Of a stretch of DNA of 64,000 bases, positions 1-21,821 are shown piece after piece. This stretch comes from Nitrosopumilus sp. (lineage in GTDB: Archaea > Thermoproteota > Nitrososphaeria > Nitrososphaerales > Nitrosopumilaceae), in NCBI GenBank assembly GCA_965219345.1, contig OZ244732.1, forward strand, positions 1,632,001-1,696,000, given 5' to 3'. A model generated the notes under the pieces. The model searched no databases. It was given only the letters and a program-made list of their open reading frames with translations, and was not told the DNA's origin. The translations under genes were made by a program, and so were the position numbers. Numbering within the stretch: the stretch's first letter is position 1; every line of letters begins with the position of its first letter.

Positions 1-25
1 TAACTTGGCATCAATGGTGGTATAA
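1..25 (+). CDS. rpl14: 3' end of ribosomal protein uL14 (partial)
   Basis: Reads ...NLASMVV* directly upstream of uL24, the expected position in the spc cluster. Confidence 0.7.
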
Positions 26-29
26 TAAA

Positions 30-1001
30 ATGAAACCAACTAAAATGCGCAACAAAATGATTTATCGTGCAACATATCAGACAAAAAGCAAACAACTTGG
101 AAGTGCATTATCAAAAGAACTGCACAAAAAATATGGAAAGAGGAGTGTCCGTGTTGTTGAGGGAGATAGTATAACAATTGTTAGAGGAGAATTCAAAGGA
201 GTAGATGGTAAAATTTCAAAAATATCTACGCAAAAAAGTAGTGTTTCTGTTGAAGGAATAAAGAAAGAGAAAACAAAAGGGGATAAATTTGACGTTTACA
301 TTCATACATCAAATCTTGTAGTTACGTCACTCAGTACTGGGGATAAATGGAGGATGGCAAAGCTCGAGGGTAAAGATCCAAGAAAACAGCCTGAAGAGAC
401 ACCTAAAGAAAAACCAGCTAAGGAAGAGTCTGTTAAGGAAGCTCCTAAAGAAAAACCAGCTAAGGAAGAGTCTGTTAAGGAAGCTCCTAAAGAAAAACCA
501 GCTAAGGAAGAGTCTGTTAAGGAAGTTCCTAAAGAAAAACCAGCTAAGGAAGAGTCTGTTAAGGAAGTTCCTAAAGAAAAACCAGCTAAGGAAGAGTCTG
601 TTAAGGAAGTTCCTAAAGAAAAACCAGCTAAGGAAGAGTCTGTTAAGGAAGTTCCTAAAGAAAAACCAGCTAAGGAAGAGTCTGTTAAGGAAGCTCCTAA
701 AGAAAAACCAGCTAAGGAAGAGTCTGTTAAGGAAGTTCCTAAAGAAAAACCAGCTAAGGAAGAGTCTGTTAAGGAAGTTCCTAAAGAAAAACCAGCTAAG
801 GAAGAGTCTGTTAAGGAAGTTCCTAAAGAAAAACCAGCTAAGGAAGAGTCTGTTAAGGAAGCTCCTAAAGAAAAACCAGCTAAGGAAGAGTCTGTTAAGG
901 AAGCTCCTAAAGAAAAACCAGCTAAGGAAGAGTCTGTTAAGGAAGCTCCTAAAGATACAAAAAAGGCAAAGGAAATCGAAAAAAAGGAAGATGAGAAATA
1001 A
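30..1001 (+). CDS. rpl24: Ribosomal protein uL24 with long Lys/Glu/Pro repeat C-terminal extension
   Basis: N-terminal archaeal L24 motifs ([23 protein letters not shown] motif, IHTSNLVVT); position before eS4. Confidence 0.95.
402..955 (+). repeat. Coding tandem repeat, 13 x 42 bp ([13 protein letters not shown][A/V])
   Basis: Unit CCTAAAGAAAAACCAGCTAAGGAAGAGTCTGTTAAGGAAG(C/T)T repeated 13 times, varying only at GCT/GTT. Confidence 0.97.
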
Positions 1002-1717
1002 TGGTAAGCATAGCAGGAAGTAAAAAACTTAAGCGTCAAATGGCTCCACAGTTCTGGGGAATTACTAGAAAAAGCAAGAGATTTGTGATTACAGTAAGAC
1101 CAGGCCCACACAAAAAGAGTCGTTCTGTGCCAACTGCAGTTTTTCTAAGAGATACATTAAAAATAGTTTCAAGTCTTAGAGAAGCAAAATCTGTAATATA
1201 TTCAGGTAAAGTAAAAATTGACGGAGTTGTAAGAAAATCACTTCATCATGCAATTGGATTAATGGATGTGGTAGAATTAGAAAATGTTTCAGATATTTAT
1301 CGTTTAGTTCCGTCAGAAAAAAGACTGTTAACACCAATTAAGATTAACGAATCAGAAAAATCAAAAAAACTTGTCAGGGTAATTAGTAAAACTACAATTA
1401 ACAAAGGAAAAATGCAGATAGGATTCCATGACGGACGTTCAACTATTTCAGATACAAAACTAAATGTAGGGGATACTTGCTTGGTACAAATTCCGGATCT
1501 AAAAATTCTTGAAGTAGTAAAATTAGAAGCAGGTTGCCAATGTATGGTAACACGTGGAGTTAACGCAGGACAAATAGGTAAGATTGAAACTATAGTAGAA
1601 GGTACATTTATTCTTCCAAAAAGAGCAGTTCTTCTTTTAGGGGATAGAAAAATCGAGATTCCAGCTGACATCGTAATGGCAATAGGAAAAGAGGAGCCAC
1701 TAATTCAACTAAAGTGA
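1001..1717 (+). CDS. rps4e: 30S ribosomal protein eS4 (S4e)
   Basis: KKLKRQMAPQFW, RPGPH, IGLMDVV motifs; operon context. Confidence 0.96.
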   Translation: MVSIAGSKKLKRQMAPQFWGITRKSKRFVITVRPGPHKKSRSVPTAVFLRDTLKIVSSLREAKSVIYSGKVKIDGVVRKSLHHAIGLMDVVELENVSDIYRLVPSEKRLLTPIKINESEKSKKLVRVISKTTINKGKMQIGFHDGRSTISDTKLNVGDTCLVQIPDLKILEVVKLEAGCQCMVTRGVNAGQIGKIETIVEGTFILPKRAVLLLGDRKIEIPADIVMAIGKEEPLIQLK

Positions 1718-1721
1718 TCAT

Positions 1722-2243
1722 ATGTCCCAAACAACAGAATCTCCAATGAAAACAATCTCTTTAGGTAAAGTAGTTCTCAACATGGGTGTAGGTAAATCGG
1801 GGGATGCAATCGAAATTGCAAAAAAAGCACTTGATCAAATTTCAGGGAAAAAATCATGTTCACATAATGCAAAAGAGACACAAAGGGATTGGGGAATTAG
1901 AAAAGGTGAGCCAATAGGCGTATCAGTAACAGTTCGCGGTGAAGACGCCATAGCATTACTAAAAAGATTATTGGAATCTAAAGGTAATACCGTTAAAGGT
2001 AAATCATTTGATAATTTTGGAAACTATTCATTTGGAATTAATGAACACATAGACATTCCAGGTGTTAAATATGAACCACAAATTGGAATTTTGGGTCTTG
2101 GAATTGCAATCACATTAACTAGACCCGGTTATGGAATAAGAAAAAGAAGTAAACACAAAGCAAGTCTTGGAAAATCTCATATTATTACAAGTCAAGAAGC
2201 AAAAGATTATCTAGTAAAAGAGTTTGGAGTGACGATAGAATAA
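1722..2243 (+). CDS. rpl5: 50S ribosomal protein uL5
   Basis: KVVLNMGVG, WGIRKGEPIGVSVTVRG, FDNFGNYSFGI motifs. Confidence 0.96.
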   Translation: MSQTTESPMKTISLGKVVLNMGVGKSGDAIEIAKKALDQISGKKSCSHNAKETQRDWGIRKGEPIGVSVTVRGEDAIALLKRLLESKGNTVKGKSFDNFGNYSFGINEHIDIPGVKYEPQIGILGLGIAITLTRPGYGIRKRSKHKASLGKSHIITSQEAKDYLVKEFGVTIE

Positions 2244-2422
2244 TGCCAAAAGATAGATCATACGAATTTACCGGAAGAAAAAAACATGACTTTGGTAGAG
2301 GTTCAAGATGGTGTAAAAGATGTGGGGATTATACAGCAGTCATACAGAAATACGATTTAATGTTATGCAGACGATGTTTCAGAGAAGTAGCAGTTTCTTT
2401 AGGATTTAGGAAAAATAAGTGA
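2243..2422 (+). CDS. rps14: 30S ribosomal protein uS14 (Zn-binding; absent from ORF track)
   Basis: Manual translation MPKDRSYEFTGRKKHDFGRGSRWCKRCGDYTAVIQKYDLMLCRRCFREVAVSLGFRKNK*; CxxC...CxxC between uL5 and uS8. Confidence 0.95.
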   Translation: MPKDRSYEFTGRKKHDFGRGSRWCKRCGDYTAVIQKYDLMLCRRCFREVAVSLGFRKNK

Positions 2423-2426
2423 TATC

Positions 2427-2819
2427 ATGCCAGCAACTAACATTTTAGCAAATCTATTTGTTACATTATACAATAATGAAACAAGAAGAAGAAATGAATG
2501 TACAATTCTCCCAACTTCAAAAATAGGAGTTGAGGTTCTAAAGACCCTTCAAAAGGGCGGATATGTTGGAAAATTTGAACATATTGATGACAAAAGAGGC
2601 GGAAAATTCAAAATCAATCTATTGGCAAAAATAACAAAGTGTGGAGCAATTTCCCCAAGATTCAAAGTGAAAAATGATGAATTTAACAGCTGGGAACAAC
2701 AGTATTTGCCTGCATACAATAGAGGAATGCTTCTAGTTACAACAAATCAAGGAGTAATGTCTCATCATGAAGCAGTAGAGAAAGGAATTGGGGGATTTTT
2801 GATAGGATATGTCTACTGA
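2427..2819 (+). CDS. rps8: 30S ribosomal protein uS8
   Basis: CGAISPRF, LVTTNQGVMSHHEA...GIGG motifs. Confidence 0.96.
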   Translation: MPATNILANLFVTLYNNETRRRNECTILPTSKIGVEVLKTLQKGGYVGKFEHIDDKRGGKFKINLLAKITKCGAISPRFKVKNDEFNSWEQQYLPAYNRGMLLVTTNQGVMSHHEAVEKGIGGFLIGYVY

Positions 2820-3366
2820 GCAACTTGAAAAATTTCAAGACGAAGTAATTATTCCAGAAGGGGTTAAAGTTACACAAAATAAACACATGATAGCATTCGA
2901 AGGTCCATTAGGTAAAACCTTCAAAAGTTTTCGCAAAATTCCAATTAATATAGAGATTAAAGAAGGCAAAATGATCTTAAAGACAAAAAGTTTTAGAAAA
3001 AGGGATTATTCAATTTTACATGCTTCAAGATCAGTTATCAGAAATATTTGTGAAGGTCTAATAGATGGATATACAATTAAAATGAAAATTGTCTTTGCAC
3101 ACTTTCCAATTACGGTAAAAGTAGAAGGAAAGAAAATTTTAATTGAAAACTTTCAAGGAGAACGTGCACCAAGAATTACAAAAATTGTTGGGAACACCAA
3201 AGTAATTCCAAAAGGTGAAGATGTAATTCTTACTGGTGAAGTTTGGACAGACATTACTCAAACTGCAGCAAATATTGAGCTAAAAACTAAAGTAAAAAAT
3301 AAAGACCATAGGGTTTTCCTTGATGGTGTCTATGTCTATGATAAGAAAAAAGGCATAGAAAAATAA
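2809..3366 (+). CDS. rpl6: 50S ribosomal protein uL6
   Basis: IPEGV, GPLG, FAHFPI, ENFQGE, KDHRVFLDGVY motifs. Confidence 0.96.
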   Translation: MSTEQLEKFQDEVIIPEGVKVTQNKHMIAFEGPLGKTFKSFRKIPINIEIKEGKMILKTKSFRKRDYSILHASRSVIRNICEGLIDGYTIKMKIVFAHFPITVKVEGKKILIENFQGERAPRITKIVGNTKVIPKGEDVILTGEVWTDITQTAANIELKTKVKNKDHRVFLDGVYVYDKKKGIEK

Positions 3367-3383: not shown

Positions 3384-3671
3384 ATGACCCTAGATCCTGA
3401 ATTTACAGAACAAACAACAGACTTGATTGAACAGACACTAGAATTATACAAATCATCAGGGGCCTCGCCTAGAGTTGGAGAAATATGGGACTGTGCAAAC
3501 ATTGGCGACTTTTTATGTGGGTTTTTTGTTGGGGAGATGGTCGGTTCGGCACTTGGTGCATTTCAGATTGTTCATAAAAGGGAACCTACACCTGAGGAGC
3601 ATTCAGAAATTATTGAGCTAGTAGAAAGTCATTCAAAAGAAATCAGAGAATTTTTTGCCAAATTCAATTGA
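3384..3671 (+). CDS. Conserved hypothetical protein
   Basis: Clean 95-aa ORF with host-like composition. Confidence 0.75.
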   Translation: MTLDPEFTEQTTDLIEQTLELYKSSGASPRVGEIWDCANIGDFLCGFFVGEMVGSALGAFQIVHKREPTPEEHSEIIELVESHSKEIREFFAKFN

Positions 3672-3744
3672 ACAGTTCCTGGACTTTGGTCTATTTTGCA
3701 TAGTAGCAAGGATTAAATCACTTTTACCAAAGTACAAGCATGTT

Positions 3745-3818
3745 GCCGCCCTAGCTCAGCGTGGTAGAGCATCCGACTGTTAATCGGACGGTCGTCAGTT
3801 CAAGTCTGATGGGCGGCG
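3745..3818 (+). tRNA. tRNA-Asn (GTT), intronless, CCA not encoded
   Basis: Acceptor stem GCCGCCC/GGGCGGC, D-arm AGCTCAGCGTGGTAGAGC, anticodon arm TCCGA-CTGTTAA-TCGGA, T-loop GTTCAAG. Confidence 0.96.
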
Positions 3819-4353
3819 CTCCTATACACACACCAAAAGATGCTCTCTTTGAAACAGCCATGACAAGCATGCAGAATTCATGCTATCTGGCCCATAAGAA
3901 CTGATTTGCGCAGAAGACTGGTACTGTTAACTTTTGAGGATCCGAGATGCCAAATTGAGCGTGTCATCTGGCAAAAGACTCTCTGTTGTTAACAGTACTG
4001 TTAATGTTAGTACGGATAAATACAATAGATGGACCAAGTAAAAACGATTGGCAGTGAAAGCCATAACGCTCTCATCTGCCATAGGAAATGACGAGGTTGC
4101 ATCCAACAATCTGAGCCAATCATTTTTTCCTACTTGGTTCACCTATCTTAATTTTCAAGAGGTTTTACGCATGAATCCAAGAACACGGCGAGTCAAACAG
4201 ATGATAAAATCAACAGGATATGCCTTACTAAGCAAGGATTCTCAATAACCACAAAACTTCAATTCGGAGAAAATTCATGTTTTGGGTCTTGAAGATCATA
4301 CAGAACCAAATGATGGCCAAAATAAGAAAAAGAAGTTTTCTGATGGTTTAAGA

Positions 4354-5217
4354 ATGGTACAGTCAGAGTCAATACAGTTGAGAACCCGTAACTTGTCAGA
4401 TACGTCGGCTCTGGTACTGCTCCTAGCTGACGGGGCAGTCCATACAAGCAGACATTCCAAAAAATATCTGGGCATGCTAAATCTTGATTCAGGCAAGACG
4501 CTTTACTCTGAGTGTGGCAGGATATGGCCGCACTACGGCGAGGTGATAAAGAACAGGAAGAGATGCATCATGGATCTAGTTCTTCACCACGTCACAAAAG
4601 AGAGGATCACGCAGCTGGCAGTCTTGGGCAGCGGCATGGATGCCCTGTCCCTGGAGACAGTATCACGTGCCAAGGACGTTGATGCCTATGATGTTGATTA
4701 TTCGCATATGGAGCTCAAAGAAAGGCTCATCAGAAAGGCATACGGCACAAGCCCAATCAGGTGTGTTCTCTCTGATCTGAATGATGCAAAAAAGGTTCTT
4801 GACGGCATGAGAAAAAACGGATGGGACAACAGCAGGCCGTCGGTTTTGGTGCTTGAGGGGATATCATATTATTTGAGCAGAAAAAAATTGTGGGATCTTG
4901 TTGCCACATTCAAGACAGCAGACAGGAGAAACGTGCTGATACTGGAGTACATGGTACCGCAAGAGGGGATTGCCAGAAAAAGACAACAGATACCGGAGCA
5001 AGTTTTTGGAGCAATTCAGAAGAAGAGTGACGACTCAAAGACACACCATACCGTAAGATATGGTGCAGATGACATTAGGATGTGCATTGAGAAGATTGGG
5101 GGATGTCTCATCCTGAGATACCGCATGAAGAACATGGAGAAGAACAGGACGGGGCACAACGTGCACTTTAAGACATACAAGAGCGGGTGGATTGAGGTGT
5201 GCCAGGCAGTTATCTGA
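4354..5217 (+). CDS. Class I SAM-dependent methyltransferase (leucine carboxyl methyltransferase-like)
   Basis: QLAVLGSGMD (motif I), YDVD, SDL, VLVLEGISYYL; ATG at 4354 preferred over TTG at 4282. Confidence 0.8.
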   Translation: MVQSESIQLRTRNLSDTSALVLLLADGAVHTSRHSKKYLGMLNLDSGKTLYSECGRIWPHYGEVIKNRKRCIMDLVLHHVTKERITQLAVLGSGMDALSLETVSRAKDVDAYDVDYSHMELKERLIRKAYGTSPIRCVLSDLNDAKKVLDGMRKNGWDNSRPSVLVLEGISYYLSRKKLWDLVATFKTADRRNVLILEYMVPQEGIARKRQQIPEQVFGAIQKKSDDSKTHHTVRYGADDIRMCIEKIGGCLILRYRMKNMEKNRTGHNVHFKTYKSGWIEVCQAVI

Positions 5218-5560
5218 GCATTGGAGCTTCAAGGCCTTGCAAAAAACGTCATTCTCAGATGATGATATGACATCAGAAACCTGCTGTTAAATTTTGATGA
5301 TCAGAATAACTGGTATTTATCACATCTTGTCTTGTGCCATCAAAAGGGCTCTGGTCAATTTAGGTGATCAGATCACCGATAGTGGCCAGGGCCGCCAGAA
5401 CATCCCCGTATCGTTGCCATTATTACTAATATGAAAAAACACAAAGAACCGTTCACAGATCCTCAAAAAAATTGATCGTGTGACACAGTTTGGTTTACTC
5501 TATTAGACAACATAGATCTAATAGTTGATCGCATATTGAGAATAATGCAGGAGGTTTACA

Positions 5561-5830
5561 TTGGTCAGAACTAGACGTGCCAACAGGTATTGTGTCGACT
5601 GTGGTGCCAGACTTGTGTATTATCCCAGGCTTTCAAACCCCAAGGCGCCAAACGAGCACAGGATACTAGTTTATGCATGTCCTGACTGTACAGATGACTT
5701 TGAGAAACCAAAGATGTTCTCAATCCGGCGCAACCAAGTAGAGGCGCCACTAGAGACAGTCGAAATTGAGATCACGCAGACGCAGAAAAAAAACGCGACA
5801 ACAAGTAGGGGAGAACAGAGGACGGGATGA
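5561..5830 (+). CDS. Zn-ribbon protein
   Basis: CVDCG...YACPDC. Confidence 0.7.
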   Translation: MVRTRRANRYCVDCGARLVYYPRLSNPKAPNEHRILVYACPDCTDDFEKPKMFSIRRNQVEAPLETVEIEITQTQKKNATTSRGEQRTG

Positions 5831-6051
5831 GTTACACTAAAAAAAGAAGCAACGCGTGGTTTTTGCTGCCAATCCTCTTGGGAATTGTCGGCGGCATCAT
5901 TGCATTTTTTGTCTTGCGACAAGATGATCCTGCAAAGGCAAAAAACTGCCTGTACCTAGGAATTGTGTTGATGGTAGTGGGCATAGTCTTGAACGTCACC
6001 CTTGCTGCATTTTTCCCCGAGTTGGGTGCAGACTTTGATGTGAACATCTAG
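5827..6051 (+). CDS. Small two-TM membrane protein
   Basis: Two hydrophobic segments (WFLLPILLGIVGGIIAFFVL, CLYLGIVLMVVGIVL); ATGA overlap with upstream ORF. Confidence 0.8.
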   Translation: MSYTKKRSNAWFLLPILLGIVGGIIAFFVLRQDDPAKAKNCLYLGIVLMVVGIVLNVTLAAFFPELGADFDVNI

Positions 6052-6181
6052 AGAGGGTACATGTCGTTTCAGACAGCATCTGCAGGTCAGCAAATTTTGC
6101 AATGCAAGATTATCCCGGCACGCGACTGCACTAAATTCATGCCTCCAAACACAAATAAAAGACAAAAAAGAGATTCTCCAG

Positions 6182-6646
6182 ATGGCAAAGAAGACACTTT
6201 ACCTTGCAAACCCGTACGGATTCTCTGAGCAACAAAAAGCCGGACCGCTGCAAGACCTTGTAAGGACGCTAAATGATCTGGGAGCCGAGGTGTGGGAGCC
6301 GTTTGAGCGAAACAATCAGGACAGTATGCTGGCAGCTGGCAGTCCCTACAAGATCGGCCGTGCTGACATGCAAGATGTCAGGGATGCAGACGGCATCTTT
6401 GCAGTCGTTAATGGGACGCCGCCAGATGAAGGCGTAATGATCGAGCTTGGCATGGCTATTGCATGGGGCAAGGAGGTCTTTTTGTTCCGTGATGACTTTC
6501 GGAGATGCACTGACAGCAGTATGTATACGCTCAACCTGATGCTGTTTACCGGCCTGCCAGAAAACGGCTGGCAAGACTGGTACTATACCAGCATGGCCGA
6601 GCTTGCAGACCCAGACAAGGCCCTGGTAAAGTGGCTAAACAAATAA
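6182..6646 (+). CDS. Nucleoside 2-deoxyribosyltransferase family protein
   Basis: LYLANPYGFS, ADGIFAVVNG, PDEGVMIELGMAIAWGK, NLML motifs typical of NDT/RCL family. Confidence 0.88.
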   Translation: MAKKTLYLANPYGFSEQQKAGPLQDLVRTLNDLGAEVWEPFERNNQDSMLAAGSPYKIGRADMQDVRDADGIFAVVNGTPPDEGVMIELGMAIAWGKEVFLFRDDFRRCTDSSMYTLNLMLFTGLPENGWQDWYYTSMAELADPDKALVKWLNK

Positions 6647-6733
6647 CCTGTTACTGTAAGATCATCATCATCTAATTTCAAAATTATTTTTTCTAAGGTA
6701 AAGTGGCTAAACAAATAACCTGTTGCTGTAAGA
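6625..6733. repeat. 37-bp direct repeat (1 mismatch) flanking a 35-bp unique insert; period 72 bp
   Basis: GGTAAAGTGGCTAAACAAATAACCTGTT(A/G)CTGTAAGA at 6625-6661 and 6697-6733. Confidence 0.93.
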
Positions 6734-6885
6734 CAGCGATGTGCGGATCTGCTTACTCTTCAAATCTGACAGCGCGTGGAGCTGTTGTAGTCAGGTAAAT
6801 TTACATACAGGAATGCGATATGCCATCTCTTATGCATTGAAGGTGAAAACAAGTGGAAGGCAATCATTGAGAACGCAAGTAAGGA

Positions 6886-7224
6886 TTAATCTTTTTTCTT
6901 AAGAGATTTGAATTTTTCATTTATCTCTTCAGGAGATAGAATTGTTCCAAATAGTTTTTCATATTTTGCTAATTCTTGCTGTAGAATTATAGCCCATGAT
7001 TTTAAGTTGACAGGTGTTAGATTTATCACACATTCAATTTCTCTATTGATTGTTGTTTTAGATGCCTTGATTTGATTTCCGTTTAATGCTTCTCTATAAT
7101 CTGGAATATCATGTAATACAGTTAGTTTGACTCCGTCATAGGTTAAATTGGAAATCTGTCCAGATACATGAACTTCTTTGTATGTGTTTGATTGTGTTAC
7201 TTGTACATCTGGTGCTTCGGACAT
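6886..7224 (-). CDS. DUF3467-like protein (likely start 7224; ORF open to 7353)
   Basis: MSEAPDVQV...INLTPVNLKSWAIILQQELAKYEKLFGTI; C-terminal YExxFGxI signature recalled for DUF3467. Confidence 0.6.
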   Translation of the reverse strand: MSEAPDVQVTQSNTYKEVHVSGQISNLTYDGVKLTVLHDIPDYREALNGNQIKASKTTINREIECVINLTPVNLKSWAIILQQELAKYEKLFGTILSPEEINEKFKSLKKKD

Positions 7225-7571
7225 GATTTTATCATTCTCATAAATAAAATTATTTAAACTGATCCCAATTTTTGGGCTTATTATCAATTCTGAGAGCAAT
7301 TTTATGGTCTCGATTCCAGAGACAGATTTAGTCATTTTTTCCTCCACCGACACGCAACACCAATTTAATCAATCATTTTCACCTATAACGCAATGGACCT
7401 CGAATTTTATAGGAGTTTTTTTACGCCCAAGATAATGAGCAGGTAACCTCACACAAATATGATTCCGGTTATTTGTCAAAGTATTATGTCCCAGGTTGAA
7501 TGTATAACATTCCGGACAGTACGTGGATTCTCCCAATTGGAATAATCTTGATCTAGTTTATTTGCATCTCA

Positions 7572-9257
7572 TTGACACAAACATCAATGAGCGAGCCAAA
7601 GTCAGATACTCTGGATCTCATACCGGTAAGAATGCTTACACAGTATGCATACTGCAAGCGCCTGGCATACATGGAATGGGTGCAAGGCGAGTTTGAGTAT
7701 AATGCAGACGTAGTAGACGGCAAGTATCAGCACAGAAATGTAGACAAGCCGTCTGGAACAAAACAGACTGATCAGGACACAGATGAAAAGATTCATGCAA
7801 GATCAGTCACCATGTCAGATGCAAAACTCGGACTCGTATCTAAGATGGATCTGCTTGAGATGGAGGGAAATACCGCAACTCCGATAGAATACAAGCGTGG
7901 AAGCACTCCCAAGAATCCTAACAGGACGTATGAGGATCATGTCGTGCAGGTGTGTGCACAGGGACTGTTGCTTCGCGCAAACGGATACACATGCACCAGA
8001 GGCATTGTCTACTACATATCATCAAAGCAGAGAATAGAAGTCAATCTAGATGATGAGACGGTAAAAAAGACAAAACAGATGATCATGGAGATGAGGGAGA
8101 TGGCAAGTACTGACATGATGCCGCCTCCTCTTGTAGACAGTCCAAAGTGTCCGCGATGTTCTCTTGTCGGCATATGTCTGCCAGACGAAACAAACATGCT
8201 ATCCAAAAACGTGAGCCATATGAATAAGGATCAGATCCGCAGGATGTACCCAATGCGAAACGATGCCATCCCGATGTACGTGCAGGAGCAGGGGGCATAT
8301 GTAACAAAATCCGGAGAATGCATCCACGTAAAGACAAGAGAGGGATCTGTAAAAAAAGTCAGGCTAATTGACATCTCAGAGATCACAGTGTTTGGAAACG
8401 TACAGATAACAACCCCTGCAATACGGGAACTGTGCAACAGAAACATTCCCATCTGCTACATGACATACGGAGGATGGTTTACCGGCATGATTTCAGGACT
8501 GTCCCACAAGAATGTGGAGCTTCGCATAGGCCAGCACAGAATATACGAAAAGAAGAATGCATCTATGGCAATAGCTCGCGAGATTGTGTTTGCAAAGATA
8601 AAAAATTGTGTAACAATGCTGCGCAGAAACCACAAATCTCCCCCAAAAGACAAGATAGACGAGCTGGACGGATTTGCAGAGCGAGCACGTACTGTCAGGC
8701 AGTATGAGACACTTCTGGGAATAGAAGGAATGGCAGCTCGCATATATTTTTCAGAGTTTAACGGTATGGTAAAATCGGAGTCGATGTATTTCGAGTTTGT
8801 AGGCAGAAACAGGAGGCCTCCAAAGGATCCAGTCAATGCAATTCTGTCTTTTTTGTATGCGATGCTGACAAGGCAGGCGGTGACTACTGTGAGCATGGTT
8901 GGCCTTGATCCATATCTGGGGTATCTTCACAGGCCAAAGTATGGCAAACCTGCACTTGCGCTTGATCTGATTGAAGAATTTCGGCCAATTGTGGCAGATT
9001 CTGTCTGCATCACGCTTATCAATAACGGAGAGATAACCCCATCAGACGTGATAAAGACACGCTTTGGTGTGAATCTCACAAGTAATGGAAGGCGTAATGT
9101 GATAACTGCATATGAAAGGCGGATGGACACTACCATAACACATCCGATTTTGGGTTATGCTGCAAGTTATAGGAGGGTTATGGAGACGCAGGCAAGATTA
9201 CTCTCCAGACACATCCTAGCGGAGATCCCGGCATATCCTGCATTTAGGACAAGGTGA
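7572..9257 (+). CDS. cas1: CRISPR-associated Cas4-Cas1 fusion (type I-G); ATG at 7587 is an alternative start
   Basis: N-terminal Cas4 (YCKR, DLLE...PIEYKRG, QVCAQ, KCPRCSLVGIC Fe-S cysteines); C-terminal Cas1 (LLGIEGMAARIYF, RNRRPPKDPVNAILSFLY, GYLH, LALDLIEEFRP). Confidence 0.97.
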   Translation: MTQTSMSEPKSDTLDLIPVRMLTQYAYCKRLAYMEWVQGEFEYNADVVDGKYQHRNVDKPSGTKQTDQDTDEKIHARSVTMSDAKLGLVSKMDLLEMEGNTATPIEYKRGSTPKNPNRTYEDHVVQVCAQGLLLRANGYTCTRGIVYYISSKQRIEVNLDDETVKKTKQMIMEMREMASTDMMPPPLVDSPKCPRCSLVGICLPDETNMLSKNVSHMNKDQIRRMYPMRNDAIPMYVQEQGAYVTKSGECIHVKTREGSVKKVRLIDISEITVFGNVQITTPAIRELCNRNIPICYMTYGGWFTGMISGLSHKNVELRIGQHRIYEKKNASMAIAREIVFAKIKNCVTMLRRNHKSPPKDKIDELDGFAERARTVRQYETLLGIEGMAARIYFSEFNGMVKSESMYFEFVGRNRRPPKDPVNAILSFLYAMLTRQAVTTVSMVGLDPYLGYLHRPKYGKPALALDLIEEFRPIVADSVCITLINNGEITPSDVIKTRFGVNLTSNGRRNVITAYERRMDTTITHPILGYAASYRRVMETQARLLSRHILAEIPAYPAFRTR

Positions 9258-9261
9258 GAGG

Positions 9262-9549
9262 TTGCGCAACAGATACTTTGTGTGTTACGATGTTTCAGAT
9301 CCGCAGCGGCTTGCGCAGACATACAAGAAGATGAAAGGATACGGAGAAGCAGTACAGTATTCCGTGTTTGCCTGCGATCTAAATGACAAGGAGATCATAA
9401 TTATGAAGGAGGATCTGGGGAACATATTAAACCTAGAAGAGGACAGAATTTTGATGATCAACATCGGATCGGTGGACAAAAGCAAGGATCGTGTGTCCAC
9501 TATGGGCATGTCGCTTGAAACACAAAAGGAGGCATCCATAGTGATATGA
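9262..9549 (+). CDS. cas2: CRISPR-associated Cas2
   Basis: YFVCYDVSD...R...KKMKGYGEAVQYSVF; follows cas1. Confidence 0.96.
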   Translation: MRNRYFVCYDVSDPQRLAQTYKKMKGYGEAVQYSVFACDLNDKEIIIMKEDLGNILNLEEDRILMINIGSVDKSKDRVSTMGMSLETQKEASIVI

Positions 9550-9727
9550 TAAAGACGATGCGAGATGTCGTGACTCATCGCATCTACGAAGAAGCGCTTG
9601 CAGATGTGTTTTATGGTAAAAAAAATATGCGTAAAATATACTTGCACGGTATGACCAAAACGTCGGCAAACAAAGAAAAAACAACGAAGAGCGAAAATTT
9701 CTTGACGAATCCTGAGAAAATGACAGG
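9550..9727 (+). promoter_or_regulatory. CRISPR leader
   Basis: A-rich non-coding segment between cas2 and first repeat; GATGCGA...TCGCATC inverted repeat; repeats end in ATTGAAGC on +, and the degenerate repeat lies at the far end. Confidence 0.8.
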
Positions 9728-12700
9728 ATTTCCATAACGAAAAAGTTATGGCCCCATTGAAGCTTTTACCTCGAATATTGAAAAGTCTATTCTAACACCT
9801 TGAATTTCCATAACGAAAAAGTTATGGCCCCATTGAAGCAATGCAAATCGAAAATAATTATGCTACAATCGGCAGAATTTCCATAACGAAAAAGTTATGG
9901 CCCCATTGAAGCACAAAAGTCAATCTTCACTTTCTCCTTGGATTTTTGATTTCCATAACGAAAAAGTTATGGCCCCATTGAAGCTCTTCTTTGTTTCCTG
10001 CCATAATTATTCAGAACAATCAGGATTTCCATAACGAAAAAGTTATGGCCCCATTGAAGCTAGTAAGATATTGTAAGGCGTCTTGCTCATCATCTCGATT
10101 TCCATAACGAAAAAGTTATGGCCCCATTGAAGCTCCTCTTCGTCTAAAGTTCCTCGAAGAAGAAAATTCCAAATTTCCATAACGAAAAAGTTATGGCCCC
10201 ATTGAAGCTTTGACAAGTCTACAACAGTACCTGAGGTGTGTAAAATTTCCATAACGAAAAAGTTATGGCCCCATTGAAGCACGGATGTGGATATGAGACA
10301 CATGAAAGGAGTCCCATAATTTCCATAACGAAAAAGTTATGGCCCCATTGAAGCTTCAAGCTGAATTGATAGTCCCTCCAGTGCTCTATCCCTTATTTCC
10401 ATAACGAAAAAGTTATGGCCCCATTGAAGCATTAATTTCAGTGCCAATAACAATTGATTTTTTGGTTAAATTTCCATAACGAAAAAGTTATGGCCCCATT
10501 GAAGCGATACCAGTATCGATTTGTAGCCTTTGCCCCATATACTTAATTTCCATAACGAAAAAGTTATGGCCCCATTGAAGCTCCAGTTCCTTGCCCTTTA
10601 GGCCGTCATCCCACTCGAAATTTCCATAACGAAAAAGTTATGGCCCCATTGAAGCCTCGATGGACTCCTCTATTTCTCCCTGGGCTGATTTATTTCCATA
10701 ACGAAAAAGTTATGGCCCCATTGAAGCTTAATTCCTGATGTTGTTGCTCAAGAAACTGCGGCGGAATTTCCATAACGAAAAAGTTATGGCCCCATTGAAG
10801 CAGATAAAACATGAAGGATCAAATTAAGACAAGGCCCATTTCCATAACGAAAAAGTTATGGCCCCATTGAAGCTCCCTAGGGGAATCGATTACATTCCCA
10901 TTAGGAAAATTTCCATAACGAAAAAGTTATGGCCCCATTGAAGCACTTTTTTGGGACAAGTTGTGCATTATTACAAAAAGGCAAATTTCCATAACGAAAA
11001 AGTTATGGCCCCATTGAAGCAAAGTATAGTTACAAAATTATGTTAACACAAAAAAGAAATTTCCATAACGAAAAAGTTATGGCCCCATTGAAGCCGTGAC
11101 ACCTTTGCAATTCCCCCCGCCAATTCCAACAATTTCCATAACGAAAAAGTTATGGCCCCATTGAAGCTCTGTTCTGGAGGAAAGTTAGTATCAGTGTATG
11201 ATGCCGAATTTCCATAACGAAAAAGTTATGGCCCCATTGAAGCTTCCCTCAGGATCAATAAACACCTGCTCTGACATTAATTTCCATAACGAAAAAGTTA
11301 TGGCCCCATTGAAGCAGATCACTAAATTCCAATGATGTGTTTGCCAGTGTCTGATTTCCATAACGAAAAAGTTATGGCCCCATTGAAGCCATCATCATCG
11401 ATTCCATCATCATCGATTCCATCATATTTCCATAACGAAAAAGTTATGGCCCCATTGAAGCATTTTTTCGGCGGTGCTAACCATGTCGATCATAACGAAT
11501 TTCCATAACGAAAAAGTTATGGCCCCATTGAAGCAAAGACTGGCAGTAACTACTAGGTCTACTCCCTTTTTTTAGCATATTTCCATAACGAAAAAGTTAT
11601 GGCCCCATTGAAGCTTTTCTATGTTTGCCGACTTTATTATATCCCAGTTCAACCCCAATTTCCATAACGAAAAAGTTATGGCCCCATTGAAGCGTTTTTG
11701 GCGGTGTTTCCTCCTCCACCAACGGATGTGATTTCCATAACGAAAAAGTTATGGCCCCATTGAAGCTGTCGTAACTATCACCGGTGCCTGCGATGGTTCT
11801 GCATTATTTCCATAACGAAAAAGTTATGGCCCCATTGAAGCATAACAAAGGAATTGCTGCCGGCCATATCACGGCAGATTTCCATAACGAAAAAGTTATG
11901 GCCCCATTGAAGCCTCCTCCTCCTTCCCCCATTTGTCCTGCAGAATCCATTGATTTCCATAACGAAAAAGTTATGGCCCCATTGAAGCGGTAAGCCCCTT
12001 TACGGAGATAATTTGGAGGATAGTAATTTCCATAACGAAAAAGTTATGGCCCCATTGAAGCTCACGGGACAGTCCCGCGGTACGGGTGGAACCGAGATTT
12101 CCATAACGAAAAAGTTATGGCCCCATTGAAGCATTGAGTGTTCTTGCGTTGCTTTGGTGTGCTGTGCTACATTTCCATAACGAAAAAGTTATGGCCCCAT
12201 TGAAGCTGATTTTCCAGCCGTTTTTACGACGGCCTTAGTATTTAATTTCCATAACGAAAAAGTTATGGCCCCATTGAAGCGAATAAAATTTTGGGTGATA
12301 TGGTTAATCCAAAAATATTTCCATAACGAAAAAGTTATGGCCCCATTGAAGCCGGTATTGGTACTAGTTCCGGTATTGGCTCTTCCGGATTTCCATAACG
12401 AAAAAGTTATGGCCCCATTGAAGCATGGGCTTGCTGGGTGTTCATCCTGCTTTCATCGTAGATTTCCATAACGAAAAAGTTATGGCCCCATTGAAGCCTA
12501 CTTCCTCGAGATGGACACTTGTAATATATTTAAAGTTCGTAATTTCCATAACGAAAAAGTTATGGCCCCATTGAAGCACATTTACCAGTTTCATCAAAAT
12601 AGTGCATACAATCACATTTCCATAACGAAAAAGTTATGGCCCCATTGAAGCTCTTTTGTTGCTGAGTGCATGTACCTTGGAGCGAGAAAATTTCCATAAC

Positions 12701-15700
12701 GAAAAAGTTATGGCCCCATTGAAGCAACGAATTCGGTAGGCTTACATCACCCACTACGGACGGGAATTTCCATAACGAAAAAGTTATGGCCCCATTGAAG
12801 CCCAGTCTTCCCGCTTTAGCTCCAGGATTCCCGTAGTTATCAATTTCCATAACGAAAAAGTTATGGCCCCATTGAAGCCCATGCAGGCCGTTAGGTCGCT
12901 GCGCACTTGTGACAAATTTCCATAACGAAAAAGTTATGGCCCCATTGAAGCAATTTTCTCATGGTTGCTTGACAGGGTCAATACCTCCATATTTCCATAA
13001 CGAAAAAGTTATGGCCCCATTGAAGCCTTTTTTCGTTAATCGCGAAAGTGCCGAATAAACCGAATTTCCATAACGAAAAAGTTATGGCCCCATTGAAGCT
13101 TGCCTTCCAATTTTTAATACAGTTTCTTCTCCAAAATTTCCATAACGAAAAAGTTATGGCCCCATTGAAGCGAAACGCAATCGGCACGGACATCAACCCA
13201 AAGGCAATTGAGCTGTGTCTGCAGATTTCCATAACGAAAAAGTTATGGCCCCATTGAAGCTTTCCCATGCCGCTAAACGCGGTGAGCGTCTAACAATTGC
13301 GGCCCAAATTTCCATAACGAAAAAGTTATGGCCCCATTGAAGCAAAAGTTGGGAATTTATTACCGAATCTGCCAAACTGAATTTCCATAACGAAAAAGTT
13401 ATGGCCCCATTGAAGCTTATCATGGATAATGTCGCCAAATTGCCTACATTTTTTATTTCCATAACGAAAAAGTTATGGCCCCATTGAAGCTCGCTCATGT
13501 CACCGCCGCCGCCTCCAAGCATTCCGCATTTCCATAACGAAAAAGTTATGGCCCCATTGAAGCTAGTTTGTTGGCAAGTAGTTCAAAGGTTGCTGTTTCT
13601 TATTTCCATAACGAAAAAGTTATGGCCCCATTGAAGCATATCTGGTCCATCCTACATTATCTGGTATGTCTGGTATTTCCATAACGAAAAAGTTATGGCC
13701 CCATTGAAGCAGAATCATATAATCTAACACCGTGGAGTCTGTGGATGATTTCCATAACGAAAAAGTTATGGCCCCATTGAAGCTTGCTCCTACTCTGTCC
13801 CTTACTACTTCTGAGATGAATTTCCATAACGAAAAAGTTATGGCCCCATTGAAGCATGGTCATGTGAGAACCACCTTCGAATTGAAGGTTACCAATTTCC
13901 ATAACGAAAAAGTTATGGCCCCATTGAAGCTCGAAAACAGGTGCCCATCCGTCAACCTCATTTCCTCCACTGGATTTCCATAACGAAAAAGTTATGGCCC
14001 CATTGAAGCTTAGTTTCTGCTGTTTTTCCGTCTCGTTTTGCCTTAACCAATTTCCATAACGAAAAAGTTATGGCCCCATTGAAGCACCTAATCCTTCCAT
14101 AGGAACGCAATAGCACCTCCTAATTTCCATAACGAAAAAGTTATGGCCCCATTGAAGCACGATTGATGAGCAAACACCAACTTTACCAGACATACATTTC
14201 CATAACGAAAAAGTTATGGCCCCATTGAAGCAAAGAATAATCAACATCGCTAAACGGAACAAATGGAAATTTCCATAACGAAAAAGTTATGGCCCCATTG
14301 AAGCGGCTAAAATTACAGCATCATAGATGTAGTTGCTGCGGGATTTCCATAACGAAAAAGTTATGGCCCCATTGAAGCACATCGACAATAATTCGTGAAG
14401 AATTGAAATATTCGAGATTTCCATAACGAAAAAGTTATGGCCCCATTGAAGCTTGTCCAGCAAATGTTAGAAATAGAAAGTTTGTTGATTTCCATAACGA
14501 AAAAGTTATGGCCCCATTGAAGCCCGTGTTGACGACCATTACAATTTGTATGCCAAATTACAAATTTCCATAACGAAAAAGTTATGGCCCCATTGAAGCG
14601 TAATTGCGTGAATACATACTGGAAAAGTGCATATCCCAATTTCCATAACGAAAAAGTTATGGCCCCATTGAAGCGATTTCATTTTGTAAAATTTGGAGTG
14701 CCTCATTATCATTTCCATAACGAAAAAGTTATGGCCCCATTGAAGCGGTGGAGTTGTAATGCTGAGGTTTGGGGAAATACAGAATTTCCATAACGAAAAA
14801 GTTATGGCCCCATTGAAGCAGCGACCGGGAAAAAATCCGCGTCGATTGTAACGCGCGAATTTCCATAACGAAAAAGTTATGGCCCCATTGAAGCTCAGCC
14901 CCGAGCCCCCCCCCCCTAGTCGCAGATTAACCCCACATTTCCATAACGAAAAAGTTATGGCCCCATTGAAGCTTTTGATGGTCTAAATTTTCTAACGCCC
15001 TTTTCAAAAATTTCCATAACGAAAAAGTTATGGCCCCATTGAAGCTATTATAGGAATAAAGTTGAAGAGTGCATAGTTGCGACAAATTTCCATAACGAAA
15101 AAGTTATGGCCCCATTGAAGCTACCTATTGTTTTTACCGGCTTGATGATTTCACCGGCGATTTCCATAACGAAAAAGTTATGGCCCCATTGAAGCACTTT
15201 CAGTGTAGGAAACACGCAGAAAGACTAGTGAAATTTCCATAACGAAAAAGTTATGGCCCCATTGAAGCTGAAATCTTTGTCAGTCTTTATGGTTCGCCTA
15301 AAAATATTTCCATAACGAAAAAGTTATGGCCCCATTGAAGCAAAAACTCGAAGGCAATAACGGCCATAAAAAAAACTGATTTCCATAACGAAAAAGTTAT
15401 GGCCCCATTGAAGCCACCACCTCCATCAGCGCGTCATACACCGTGGTCTCCTCGCCATTTCCATAACGAAAAAGTTATGGCCCCATTGAAGCAACGTGTA
15501 CGGTTACAATGAACCAGATGATGAACCCATATTTCCATAACGAAAAAGTTATGGCCCCATTGAAGCGTATTTCATAGTGATCACACTGAGAATAATTTCT
15601 ATAAATTTCCATAACGAAAAAGTTATGGCCCCATTGAAGCGCCCCAACTGAAGTAATCATCCTCAATCACGGTGTCAATTTCCATAACGAAAAAGTTATG

Positions 15701-18700
15701 GCCCCATTGAAGCATGAAGTATTGAGTGCCAGTCCCTGATTCCACTGAAATTTCCATAACGAAAAAGTTATGGCCCCATTGAAGCTCTAATATCGCTCTA
15801 AAGGCAATTCCATTTAGCGCAATTTCCATAACGAAAAAGTTATGGCCCCATTGAAGCATCTTTTCATCATCATTACCATGAGGACAACTACAAGCATTTC
15901 CATAACGAAAAAGTTATGGCCCCATTGAAGCATCAAAATCAATCCCATATTCGCGCTTGTACCGATATCATTTCCATAACGAAAAAGTTATGGCCCCATT
16001 GAAGCGGAGCGCCAACGATTGTAAACGCGAGTCCTGTAGTTATTTCCATAACGAAAAAGTTATGGCCCCATTGAAGCTCTCACCTTCCGCTGATTCCCAT
16101 CTTACCAGTAGGTGAGATTTCCATAACGAAAAAGTTATGGCCCCATTGAAGCAGCCTAGTGTGTGTAACCGCCCGCTGAAAAGGACTATTATTTCCATAA
16201 CGAAAAAGTTATGGCCCCATTGAAGCAAAACCTTTGGCCATAACAAATTATGTTGCTGTTGCTACATTTCCATAACGAAAAAGTTATGGCCCCATTGAAG
16301 CTCTTTTTGTTGGGTCTTCCATGTCGTGATAATTTGACATTTCCATAACGAAAAAGTTATGGCCCCATTGAAGCGCCCTCCTCTGTCATTTGTCTAGTCC
16401 TAAAGCCGAGATTTCCATAACGAAAAAGTTATGGCCCCATTGAAGCTTAGTTCGGAAGGATCAAAGGGAAAAATATCGGACAATTTCCATAACGAAAAAG
16501 TTATGGCCCCATTGAAGCTGGTATGTACCGGGCGCGGACGGAAAAAGCGCCAAAATTTCCATAACGAAAAAGTTATGGCCCCATTGAAGCTCCATATCTC
16601 GCCTTTCGTTGTTTATCTAATCTAAATTTCCATAACGAAAAAGTTATGGCCCCATTGAAGCGAAGTTGCTACTCCTTTTGTCTTTTCCACAAAAACCGTA
16701 TTTCCATAACGAAAAAGTTATGGCCCCATTGAAGCACTGCCGTAAATTCCGACTAATCCAGCCATACCAAAATTTCCATAACGAAAAAGTTATGGCCCCA
16801 TTGAAGCTTGGATCTGCTATCTTTCCCATGGTGGTGACAGCCCGATTTCCATAACGAAAAAGTTATGGCCCCATTGAAGCGGTGTATACAACGATAATAA
16901 CAGCCAGGTATTTGGCAGATTTCCATAACGAAAAAGTTATGGCCCCATTGAAGCAGTTATCTTGGGTGGATCAATCGGTTTTTTATTTCAGGTAGAATCT
17001 GAATTTCCATAACGAAAAAGTTATGGCCCCATTGAAGCATGGTCATGTGACTTCCGCCCTCATATTGCAAATTGCCGTATTTCCATAACGAAAAAGTTAT
17101 GGCCCCATTGAAGCACAAGTCTTTACGGTTCGCCCAAAAATTCTCGTTATATTTCCATAACGAAAAAGTTATGGCCCCATTGAAGCTCAGTACTCCTGAT
17201 AGCACGAGCAATTAAAGCACTAGATTTCCATAACGAAAAAGTTATGGCCCCATTGAAGCTAATATCCATTCTCTAATTTTGTTTTTTCTGCATATCTATT
17301 TCCATAACGAAAAAGTTATGGCCCCATTGAAGCTGTGAGAATGAGCTGTCGGATTTCAGGATGTTTAGATTTCCATAACGAAAAAGTTATGGCCCCATTG
17401 AAGCTGTGATAAAGCCATCTGCAACCAGCACGTAATTTCTATTTCCATAACGAAAAAGTTATGGCCCCATTGAAGCGTGTAATTGACTTGAGAAATTGTT
17501 TTTGATTGTTCCAAATTTCCATAACGAAAAAGTTATGGCCCCATTGAAGCTGTAATTGACCTAACCAATCTACTGGAGGGTCATTAATTTCCATAACGAA
17601 AAAGTTATGGCCCCATTGAAGCTGAGAGGTCCATGAAAAATTTGGGAATCAAGGCGGTATTTCCATAACGAAAAAGTTATGGCCCCATTGAAGCCAGAAA
17701 CTTTGATACAAAGTGAAAGCATCAAACTTGATTTCCATAACGAAAAAGTTATGGCCCCATTGAAGCGTCTATTTGGCGAATCTAAGGGATTCATCTAAAT
17801 GTCCGATTTCCATAACGAAAAAGTTATGGCCCCATTGAAGCTTGGATACTTTGACGATGCTGAAGAGGTTGAAAAATATTTCCATAACGAAAAAGTTATG
17901 GCCCCATTGAAGCTTTAATTTCGGTATGTTTAGGACGCCAGATGAAACAATTTCCATAACGAAAAAGTTATGGCCCCATTGAAGCTGATGCTAGTTTTGT
18001 TAAGGGGAATTAATTTTTCCTTGATTTCCATAACGAAAAAGTTATGGCCCCATTGAAGCAGGGTCTTGCTGGACACACGACTGGGATTTCTTGATGAGAT
18101 TTCCATAACGAAAAAGTTATGGCCCCATTGAAGCACAGACTGGGATTGGGATGTTTCAGGTGACCTAAATAATTTCCATAACGAAAAAGTTATGGCCCCA
18201 TTGAAGCCCTGGTTTTCCACTTCCTATAATTCCTGGACAAATTCAGATTTCCATAACGAAAAAGTTATGGCCCCATTGAAGCTTCGGAATGTGGTTTCTT
18301 AATCAATCGGACGAATCTGAATTTCCATAACGAAAAAGTTATGGCCCCATTGAAGCAAATTCCTCTGATGTTGCCAGTGTTCCTCTTTTGGTATTTCCAT
18401 AACGAAAAAGTTATGGCCCCATTGAAGCTCTGTTTAGTAAAATGATGGATTACTGGGGATTGACCACGATTTCCATAACGAAAAAGTTATGGCCCCATTG
18501 AAGCGGAGACAACTAGAGAAATAATATAATGACAGAAATACCTATTTCCATAACGAAAAAGTTATGGCCCCATTGAAGCACGACAATAATAACATTCTAC
18601 TTCCCGACCCCTGGATAAATTTCCATAACGAAAAAGTTATGGCCCCATTGAAGCCCAACTACAAGAACGTAAATTGTCTTGTAATAGATATTTCCATAAC

Positions 18701-21700: not shown

Positions 21701-21821
21701 CGCACACACCAATTTCCATAACGAAAAAGTTATGGCCCCATTGAAGCAGGTGTAAGATTCCATCGTGAGATGAATTCTGTTGTGGATTTCCATAACGAAA
21801 AAGTTATGGCCCCATTGAAGC
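9728..21821 (+). CRISPR. CRISPR array, about 164 repeats / 163 spacers (manual count), 36-bp repeat ATTTCCATAACGAAAAAGTTATGGCCCCATTGAAGC
   Basis: Near-invariant repeat with 7-bp hairpin CCATAAC/GTTATGG; unique spacers mostly 35-42 nt, up to 53 nt; one variant repeat at 18690-18725. Confidence 0.99.

Follow-up and report, generated by a model that had tools for sequence, protein, structure and literature searches.

Results

A spacer-sized insert lies between duplicated target sequences at the 3′ end of the NDT gene

The DNA analyzed here is a 64,000-nt stretch of a Nitrosopumilus sp. genome (positions 1,632,001 to 1,696,000 of contig OZ244732.1, assembly GCA_965219345.1; hereafter, the window), which contains a complete type I-G CRISPR–Cas system with a 164-repeat array. 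At the 3′ end of a gene for nucleoside 2-deoxyribosyltransferase (NDT), upstream of the cas4/cas1 fusion gene (cas4/1) of this system, a spacer-sized insert is flanked by two copies of its target sequence. This footprint very probably arose when the type I-G Cas4/1–Cas2 encoded nearby integrated a spacer outside the array (ectopic integration), a reading already proposed in a preliminary description of the window and strengthened here by a size match to the resident array, a distant donor within the host genome and about three dozen sister footprints. What was observed comprises the anatomy of the footprint and its donor, the sister events with their empty sites, and an association with type I-G genomes; the agent is attributed to Cas4/1–Cas2 because we know of no other process by which heterogeneous ~36-bp fragments would be inserted together with ~36-bp duplications.

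The direct repeat GGTAAAGTGGCTAAACAAATAACCTGTT[A/G]CTGTAAGA (37 nt, one mismatch) occupies positions 6625–6661 and 6697–6733, with a start-to-start distance of 72 nt. Neither copy is assigned a strand, and position 29 is G instead of A in copy 2. Between them lies the 35-nt insert (6662–6696, minus strand), whose minus strand reads ...LEKIILKLDDD.... Thus, the preliminary account of a 37-bp duplication with one mismatch, a 35-nt insert and a period of 72 was borne out by sequence comparison. The edges of the repeat are sharp, as the outside bases differ between the copies (T/A before and T/C after), and the insert is not a continuation of its flanks. The A at position 6661 also precedes the donor segment described below; assigning it to the insert gives a 36-nt copy 1 and a 36-nt insert, so that the structure is equally readable as 36 + 36 + 36. 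Chance cannot account for such a recurrence of a 37-mer (one mismatch, fixed offset) within 64 kb. Tandem Repeats Finder did not report the pair, because the insert is not repeated.

The NDT gene (6182–6646, plus strand, 154 aa) was identified from its open reading frame (ORF) and a match to Pfam PF05014 (E = 8.7e-25). Copy 1 takes in the final 22 nt of this gene including the stop codon (6644–6646), and the gene therefore stays intact. The distance from copy 2 to the start of cas4/1 (7572) is 839 bp, in line with the earlier estimate of about 850 bp.

The structure was also present in assembled reads. A 3193-nt Logan contig of run X2 spans 6561–7800 in the filled form with no gap, and a 134-nt Logan contig of run X1 covers 6593–6726 (copy 1, the insert and part of copy 2) without difference; as both runs may include the source sample of the genome, these contigs exclude a one-off assembly slip and do not represent independent biology. 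A second contig of ~2160 nt in runs X1/X2, with lower depth, differs from the window at 9 of 99 nt over the NDT 3′ end and does not extend beyond 6659. Judging from these differences, a diverged NDT gene of a related strain or species appears to co-occur in the two runs. Furthermore, the NDT ortholog in the related genome G002 is 80% identical and of the same length, and its 3′ end is single-copy. In five other type I-G genomes, the DNA upstream of cas4/1 is not homologous to the NDT region; homology begins only at 7614, and these genomes therefore provide no orthologous NDT site.

The insert matches a HEAT-repeat gene of the same genome

Searching the insert against the host genome, as the preliminary description had recommended, revealed its protospacer. 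The insert matches G000:C1:301522–301556 (G000 being the host genome) at 34/35 positions, 1.3 Mb away, within a HEAT-repeat gene. The donor ORF (L002 1408–1944, 178 aa) matches Pfam HEAT_2 at E = 5e-17 and contains the insert in frame, which explains the earlier remark that the insert reads as coding on the minus strand. This donor gene is conserved across the genus, and its ortholog in G036 matches the insert at 35/35 positions. At the mismatched position, the host donor gene has G, whereas the A of the insert is found in 12 of 14 relatives, indicating that the insert preserves an older state of the donor. On this sequence evidence, the fragment would have been captured either from the host's own gene before its change or from the DNA of a close relative. 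The older donor state, together with the mismatch between the two copies, suggested that the NDT event is older than most of the sister footprints.

Footprints of the same anatomy occur across the genome

The 1.91-Mb genome was scanned for direct repeats that are 24 nt or longer, spaced 30–250 nt apart and free of any other repeat match within 600 nt. Among the 55 isolated pairs obtained, 29 had a spacing of 70–76, and any other single spacing was represented by 0–2 pairs. Curation by eye for sharp edges and a location outside tandem arrays gave 38 footprints, two of which were re-registered: the duplicate at 123646 was shortened from 42 to 37 nt (the other 5 nt belonging to the donor), and that at 429362 was extended from 33 to 36 nt with one mismatch allowed. 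Two footprints, 37490 and 1826944, are copies of 243305 and 1483340, respectively, inside duplicated segments, and the 38 footprints therefore represent 36 independent events. Composition and motif counts were made on 35 footprints, leaving out 37490, 1448839 and 1826944, each of which lies in a paralogous copy of a counted target.

Among these 35, the duplication was 36 nt (13 footprints), 37 nt (9), 38 nt (3), 35 nt (2), 34 nt (1) or 27–32 nt (7). The inserts ranged from 32 to 40 nt with a median of 36, and the period was 70–76 in 28 footprints and 64–68 in 7. The duplicated sequence and the insert were different in each footprint. The 37- and 38-nt duplications have the lengths that a true 36-nt duplication would show through chance identity of the next base, and the seven events with duplications of 27–32 nt would be consistent with a mis-set ruler where the internal anchors of the repeat are missing.

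Three candidates were set aside. A 35-nt pair at spacing 137 (C1:451555) was rejected as part of a segmental, partly tandem duplication, and the pairs at 185773 and 1482757 were left out on account of their resemblance to protein or tandem repeats. One footprint (G000:C1:88227–88337, period 75) lies in frame inside an ORF of ~3375 aa, which it leaves unbroken, in a region with a GC content of 0.53.

Empty sites and restored reading frames identify the footprints as insertions

Single-copy, 'empty' paralogs were found within the genome for 8 footprints (10 site–paralog comparisons). Site 404166 matched its empty paralog at 333045 over 40/40 upstream, 36/36 target and 40/40 downstream positions; the corresponding values were 40/40, 37/38 and 39/40 for 1335276 (paralog 749637) and 38/40, 35/37 and 40/40 for 243305 (paralog 237135). 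Moreover, genome G017 is empty for events 1339320 and 1339961: the empty models align over their whole length (157 nt without gaps; 158 nt including 2 gaps), whereas each filled sequence breaks up into two matches, with overlaps of 35 and 36 nt in G017. For event 1503080, the empty state is seen in G036 and G165, in copies of a multi-copy element.

Deletion in silico of the insert and one copy of the duplicate yielded a longer ORF in at least seven events. The restored frames were 666 aa for event 1519410 (439 and 257 aa as found), 303 aa for 1339320 (185 and 173), 261 aa for 426365 (138 and 192), 304 aa for 1503080 (218), 252 aa for 601723 (155), 199 aa for 123646 (142) and 114 aa for 919312 (57 and 91).

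The inserts include self DNA that is absent from the array

A full-length donor elsewhere in the genome was found for 7 of the 35 inserts, six at 100% identity and the NDT-site insert at 34/35, and all seven donors sit in ordinary, unduplicated context. One of them lies in the window itself: positions 4412–4448 (plus strand), in a methyltransferase-like gene (4282–5217; Pfam LCM), match the ectopic insert G000:C1:915809–915845 at 37/37 positions. One further insert matches a repeat family over 26/34 nt, and for 27 of the 35 no source was found within the genome.

None of the non-self inserts matched an array spacer. In the genome outside the array, 0 of the 163 array spacers had a match other than three chance matches (22 nt with 2 mismatches). 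The contrast between 7/35 and 0/163 would be expected if self-spacers are purged by autoimmunity from an expressed array and tolerated where no CRISPR RNA (crRNA) is made. The GC content of the inserts (0.424) and of the array spacers (0.421) is similar, compared with 0.36 for the genome, and in both sets the last positions are A-rich and C-poor.

The three bases upstream of the seven donors (TAG, GTA, ACT, CTC, TTG, TTG and ATA) showed no consistent motif, and neither did those on the other strand (CTC, TTA, AGG, CTG, TTT, TTT and ATT). Protospacers of the array spacers were found neither in the genome (0/163) nor in the phage collection, so that a protospacer adjacent motif (PAM) is not derivable from them; in 150 genomes of the genus, all short matches were to repeats and none to spacers. 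A PAM is not required for integration as such.

Target sites share a weak end motif, are clustered and favour GC-rich DNA

With both ends of the target sites pooled (n = 70), a weak symmetric end motif was observed. G occurred at +4 in 34/70 ends versus 14.7 expected (p = 2.9e-7), a value to be compared with the lowest p among 1000 random-site sets, 3.6e-5; A occurred at +6 in 34/70 and at +7 in 36/70. The G at +4 is not present at the NDT site. Furthermore, two target sequences were hit twice (404166 and 1448839; 1824847 and 1483340, of which 1826944 is the copy), with different inserts and slightly shifted registers. By their sequences, these sites appear to be hot spots hit by independent events, and together with the end motif they point to an enzyme with a target preference of its own.

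The footprints are clustered, with 9 gaps below 5 kb versus 3.07 expected (P = 0.0014), and they favour GC-rich DNA, as 18 of the 35 lie at a local GC content of at least 0.42, a level that covers 11.5% of the genome. Clustering and GC bias could reflect a preference of the enzyme or the tolerance of insertions in the flexible genome. The closeness of the NDT footprint to cas4/1 is not significant alone (P ~0.14 for at least one of 35 random events).

Footprint density follows the presence of the type I-G system

The genus is represented by 151 species-level genomes in the collection. A type I-G Cas4/1 (63–83% identity, full length) was found in 10 of the 150 other genomes and in broken form in an eleventh. 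For comparison between genomes, a 'typical' pair was defined by a spacing of 64–76, a duplication of 27–39 nt and an insert of 30–41 nt, and one script was used for all genomes. The host genome gave 32 typical pairs in 1871 kb scanned (17.1 per Mb). Two other type I-G genomes, G165 (identical repeat, Cas4/1 83% identical) and G169 (36-nt repeat), gave 5 pairs (12.5 per Mb) and 4 pairs (10.0 per Mb), respectively, in 400 kb each. Among the genomes with no Cas4/1 or array match, G007 gave 3 pairs in 800 kb (3.8 per Mb), the copies of which differ at 5, 6 and 1 positions, and G012 gave 1 pair in 800 kb (1.2 per Mb), a 28-nt low-complexity coding repeat with 3 mismatches. None of the events in G165, G169 or G007 is orthologous to any in the host genome, indicating that they arose separately.

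The G007 pairs lie at G007:C1:280427, 572977 and 660163, with periods of 72–75. These diverged pairs may be old scars of a type I-G system since lost. Near-exact matches of 35–44 nt (88–98% identity) to the canonical repeat were also found in three genomes with no type I-G Cas4/1 match (G017:C1:1535361–1535404, G172:C1:2066163–2066197 and G163:C1:1629273–1629313) and may be remnants of lost arrays.

Discussion

A proposed mechanism for ectopic integration

In spacer integration, Cas1–Cas2 carries out two transesterifications on opposite strands at both ends of the repeat, and gap repair then duplicates the repeat. This chemistry predicts a repeat-length duplication around a spacer-length insert at any site mistaken for a repeat. 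The NDT footprint agrees in size: its duplication of 36–37 nt corresponds to the 36-nt repeat of the resident array, its insert of 35–36 nt to the most frequent spacer length of 36 nt and its period of 72 to the array period of mostly 72–74, which argues for integration by Cas4/1–Cas2. In addition, apparently intact cas4/1 and cas2 genes only 839 bp away supply a cognate enzyme. We propose that a prespacer of ~36 bp would have been excised from this HEAT-repeat gene, in the host or in a very close relative, and that the integrase would have joined both prespacer 3′ ends to the chromosome on opposite strands, ~36 bp from each other, with the NDT end as its target instead of the leader–repeat junction. 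Gap repair would then have duplicated the 36–37 bp between the attack points, as it does for the repeat in an array. As the NDT stop codon was kept in copy 1, the event would have been harmless and would have persisted. Since then, the two copies have come to differ by one substitution, and so have the insert and its donor. The NDT footprint is most likely an inert scar and not a working array.

A broader proposal, which we consider rather probable and hold with clearly less confidence than the origin of the NDT footprint itself, is that Cas4/1–Cas2 of this genus follows a loose target rule, namely two weak half-sites ~36 bp apart with no need for leader or repeat. The enzyme would then be a frequent natural insertional mutagen that breaks genes and is responsible, in several species, for dozens of fixed 72-bp scars in each genome; these scars would be an unselected record of capture, about one fifth of it self DNA that never survives in the array.

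Several observations weigh against integration by Cas4/1–Cas2 or qualify it. An empty conspecific allele of the NDT site was not found: contigs of four runs contained no joint skipping the 72 nt, and two metagenome scans for the site, one with the downstream flank and one with the duplicate itself, gave 0 matches. The target sites do not resemble the array entrance, since alignment to the 15 nt of leader plus repeat, in the best orientation, gave a mean of 18.7/51 compared with 19.0 at 2000 random sites; the NDT site shares 13 of 36 positions with the canonical repeat, the value given previously. A 5′-TTN PAM, which had been predicted at the protospacer, is absent beside the donor of the NDT-site insert on both strands (ATA upstream and ATT on the other strand), and TTN occurs on either side in just 3 of the 7 donors versus a chance expectation of ~0.2, which is not significant. 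A viral source was sought for 4 of the 27 non-self inserts by scanning viral contigs with 28-nt cores, with 0 matches. Finally, the association with type I-G compares three genomes with two, which are related and hence not independent, and most of which were sampled in part; the negative control is not clean either, as G007 has three typical-looking pairs in 800 kb with no Cas4/1 match.

Alternative explanations

An error of replication or repair, through template switching or microhomology-mediated break-induced replication (MMBIR) in which 35 nt of a distant gene were copied before re-priming 37 nt back, or through break repair with filler DNA, would account for an insert templated from elsewhere in the genome, and MMBIR and fork stalling and template switching (FoSTeS) can yield a duplication plus a templated insertion. 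However, the junction microhomology at the NDT site is just 1 nt and 0 nt, and 27 of the 35 inserts have no template in the genome. Such errors would also have to produce, at dozens of unrelated sites, duplications of 36–37 nt (22 of the 35) with inserts of 32–40 nt, equal to repeat and spacer sizes, at a density that follows the presence of type I-G. We therefore regard this origin as very unlikely. Equally improbable is a functional one-spacer mini-array that is transcribed and processed, either newborn or a regulatory crRNA-like unit targeting the host HEAT-repeat gene, which the preliminary description had put forward. Near-identical 'repeats' do flank a spacer-sized sequence with 34/35 identity to a host gene close to the cas genes, and the seeding of neo-CRISPR loci by off-target integration has been proposed for Escherichia coli in the available preprint text (10.1101/148544). 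The proposal does not hold well at the level of the repeat: in addition to the low identity of 13/36, the duplicates lack the 7-bp hairpin and the ATTGAAGC end, their minimum free energy (–4.1 and –3.1 kcal/mol versus –8.3 kcal/mol for the canonical repeat) indicates weak folding, and the TAAC..GTTA dyad described earlier as repeat-like is just a 4-bp stem that is broken in copy 2. Moreover, a third tandem copy, that is, a second spacer, is lacking in all 38 footprints; the sister footprints lie at arbitrary places, some inside ORFs that they break; and the donor has no TTN PAM. No RNA run covering the stretch was found, an outcome that speaks neither for nor against this reading.

Two further possibilities have next to no probability in our view. 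The footprint might be the remnant of a mobile element, with the copies representing attL/attR of a site-specific integrase or the target duplication of a transposon or casposon of which later deletion left 35 nt. Integrative elements typically enter the 3′ end of a gene and duplicate its terminal codons; the region belongs to the GC-richer flexible genome, and an IS1595 transposase is encoded in the window. The insert itself contradicts such an origin, as it is sharply bordered and copies a conserved segment of a host gene instead of element ends; furthermore, the 35 counted inserts are all different and have no common terminal repeats, and no larger element was seen at the site in any relative. 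The duplication of 36–37 nt also far exceeds those of transposons or casposons, the latter being 14–15 bp. The other possibility is an artefact of assembly or sequencing. Short repeats can confuse short-read graphs, and contigs of run X1 break at the duplicate; nevertheless, the 3193-nt contig of X2 spans the structure without a gap and the 134-nt contig of X1 is exact. The two copies also differ at one base, and the same anatomy is found at dozens of sites and in the assemblies of other species.

Relation to known systems

Off-target integration by the type I-E Cas1–Cas2 of E. coli, giving rise to 'neo-CRISPR' loci, has been described (Nivala, Shipman & Church 2018; as presented in PMC7054753, PMC6698737, PMC9456107 and 10.1101/148544). 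According to these accounts, the two cases share a spacer-sized fragment outside the array, a repeat-length target duplication and the cognate Cas1–Cas2 as the proposed actor. The E. coli events arose in cultures that over-produced Cas1–Cas2 and were fed oligonucleotides, and they were linked to sequences resembling IHF sites, whereas the events reported here are fixed in wild archaeal genomes, at targets without likeness to repeat or leader. They also involve a type I-G Cas4/1–Cas2 and number about three dozen per genome, none of which has grown into an array. In the 2018 preprint, as far as its available text goes, natural evidence for off-target integration was called circumstantial and came from two other species, and it was considered unclear whether off-array integration commonly occurs in nature (10.1101/148544).

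The Cas1–Cas2 of Pyrococcus furiosus was reported to carry out full-site off-target integration in vitro with repeat-length spacing (PMC6698737). Judging from the portion of that report available, the likeness lies in paired attacks on opposite strands at repeat-length spacing in non-CRISPR DNA and in a base preference near the attack points. That system used plasmids in vitro, the spacing was 30 bp and the preferred sites were repeat-like; by contrast, the events here are natural, with a spacing of 36 bp and a different, weak symmetric end motif, and 7 of the 35 have shorter duplications of 27–32 nt. For the type I-U/I-G Cas4/1–Cas2 of Geobacter sulfurreducens, acquisition was described on the array, with TTN as the upstream PAM for 50% of the unique spacers (Almendros et al. 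2019, PMC6547450). This enzyme belongs to the same protein family (NCBIfam cas4g_cas1g) and the predominant spacer length is likewise 36 bp; the main text, which reports the TTN PAM, does not contain the term 'off-target', while the ectopic donors here show no significant TTN. Casposons are known in ammonia-oxidising archaea (PMC8464041). They are integrated by casposases, which are homologous to Cas1, and share with the footprints the integrase chemistry of the Cas1 family, the target-site duplication and the archaeal group. They are, however, kilobase elements with terminal inverted repeats, unlike the 32–40-nt inserts, all different, with 36-nt duplications.

A literature search covering few subscription journals found no published report of genome-wide natural footprints. 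Off-array integration as such is known; the novelty lies in a record of it that is natural, fixed and genome-wide, from archaea and for a type I-G Cas4/1–Cas2. Further footprints accompany the same system in at least two sister species. From the broken genes, the mutational cost of CRISPR adaptation can be gauged in nature, and the inserts form a selection-free sample of captured spacers. Through the proportion of self DNA in this sample (7/35, compared with 0/163 in the array), it becomes possible to measure directly how adaptation is biased between self and non-self and how self-spacers are purged. Moreover, the intrinsic target rule of Cas4/1–Cas2 can be read from its natural off-target sites, which is relevant to Cas1–Cas2 DNA recorders.

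The resident type I-G system and other features of the window

The proposed integrase is encoded by cas4/1 (7572–9257, plus strand), which matches NCBIfam NF049935 (cas4g_cas1g) at 754 bits over its full length and also matches Pfam Cas1 and Cas4; at E ≤ 1e-20, no other Cas1 match was obtained in the genome. It is followed by cas2 (9262–9549, plus strand; Pfam PF09827, E = 4e-18) and by the CRISPR array (9728–21821, plus strand), which consists of 164 repeats of 36 nt, 163 of them identical, and 163 spacers of 35–53 nt. Spacers of 36 nt are the most frequent (37 spacers), followed by those of 37 nt (35) and 38 nt (34); the period is mostly 72–74 and lies within 71–76 in 150 of the 163 units. 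The canonical repeat, ATTTCC...ATTGAAGC, contains a 7-bp hairpin. In the arrays of the sister species G165, G160 and G169, the stem arms are CCATAAC/GTTATGG, CCGTAAC/GTTACGG and CTGTAAC/GTTACAG, respectively, and these paired changes appear to be compensatory variation supporting the hairpin.

The effector genes lie beyond the array on the minus strand, comprising csb2 (cas5/6; 21909–23324), cas7g (23333–24304), cas8g/csx17 (24329–26482) and cas3g (26479–28935), and were assigned with a set of NCBIfam models (TIGR02165, TIGR02570, TIGR04113 and TIGR02621). A gene for an IS1595-family transposase (29997–30707, minus strand) is located just past cas3g. The CRISPR–cas block and its surroundings (~3500–21800) have a GC content of 0.38–0.49 versus 0.36 for the genome, which suggests from composition that they may be an acquired island.

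Between the footprint and cas4/1, an ORF of 155 aa (6886–7353, minus strand) with a GC content of ~0.34 and GC-richer neighbours gave no match in Pfam or NCBIfam. The presence of an archaeal AmoA gene in the genome identified the host as an ammonia-oxidising archaeon, and an archaeal ribosomal operon at 1001–3366 was read from ORF sizes and an L6 match. At the start of the window, 14 copies of a 42-nt tandem unit (14 aa), near-identical in the middle of the array, occupy positions 276–1081 within an ORF (3–1001, plus strand) that runs off the window start.

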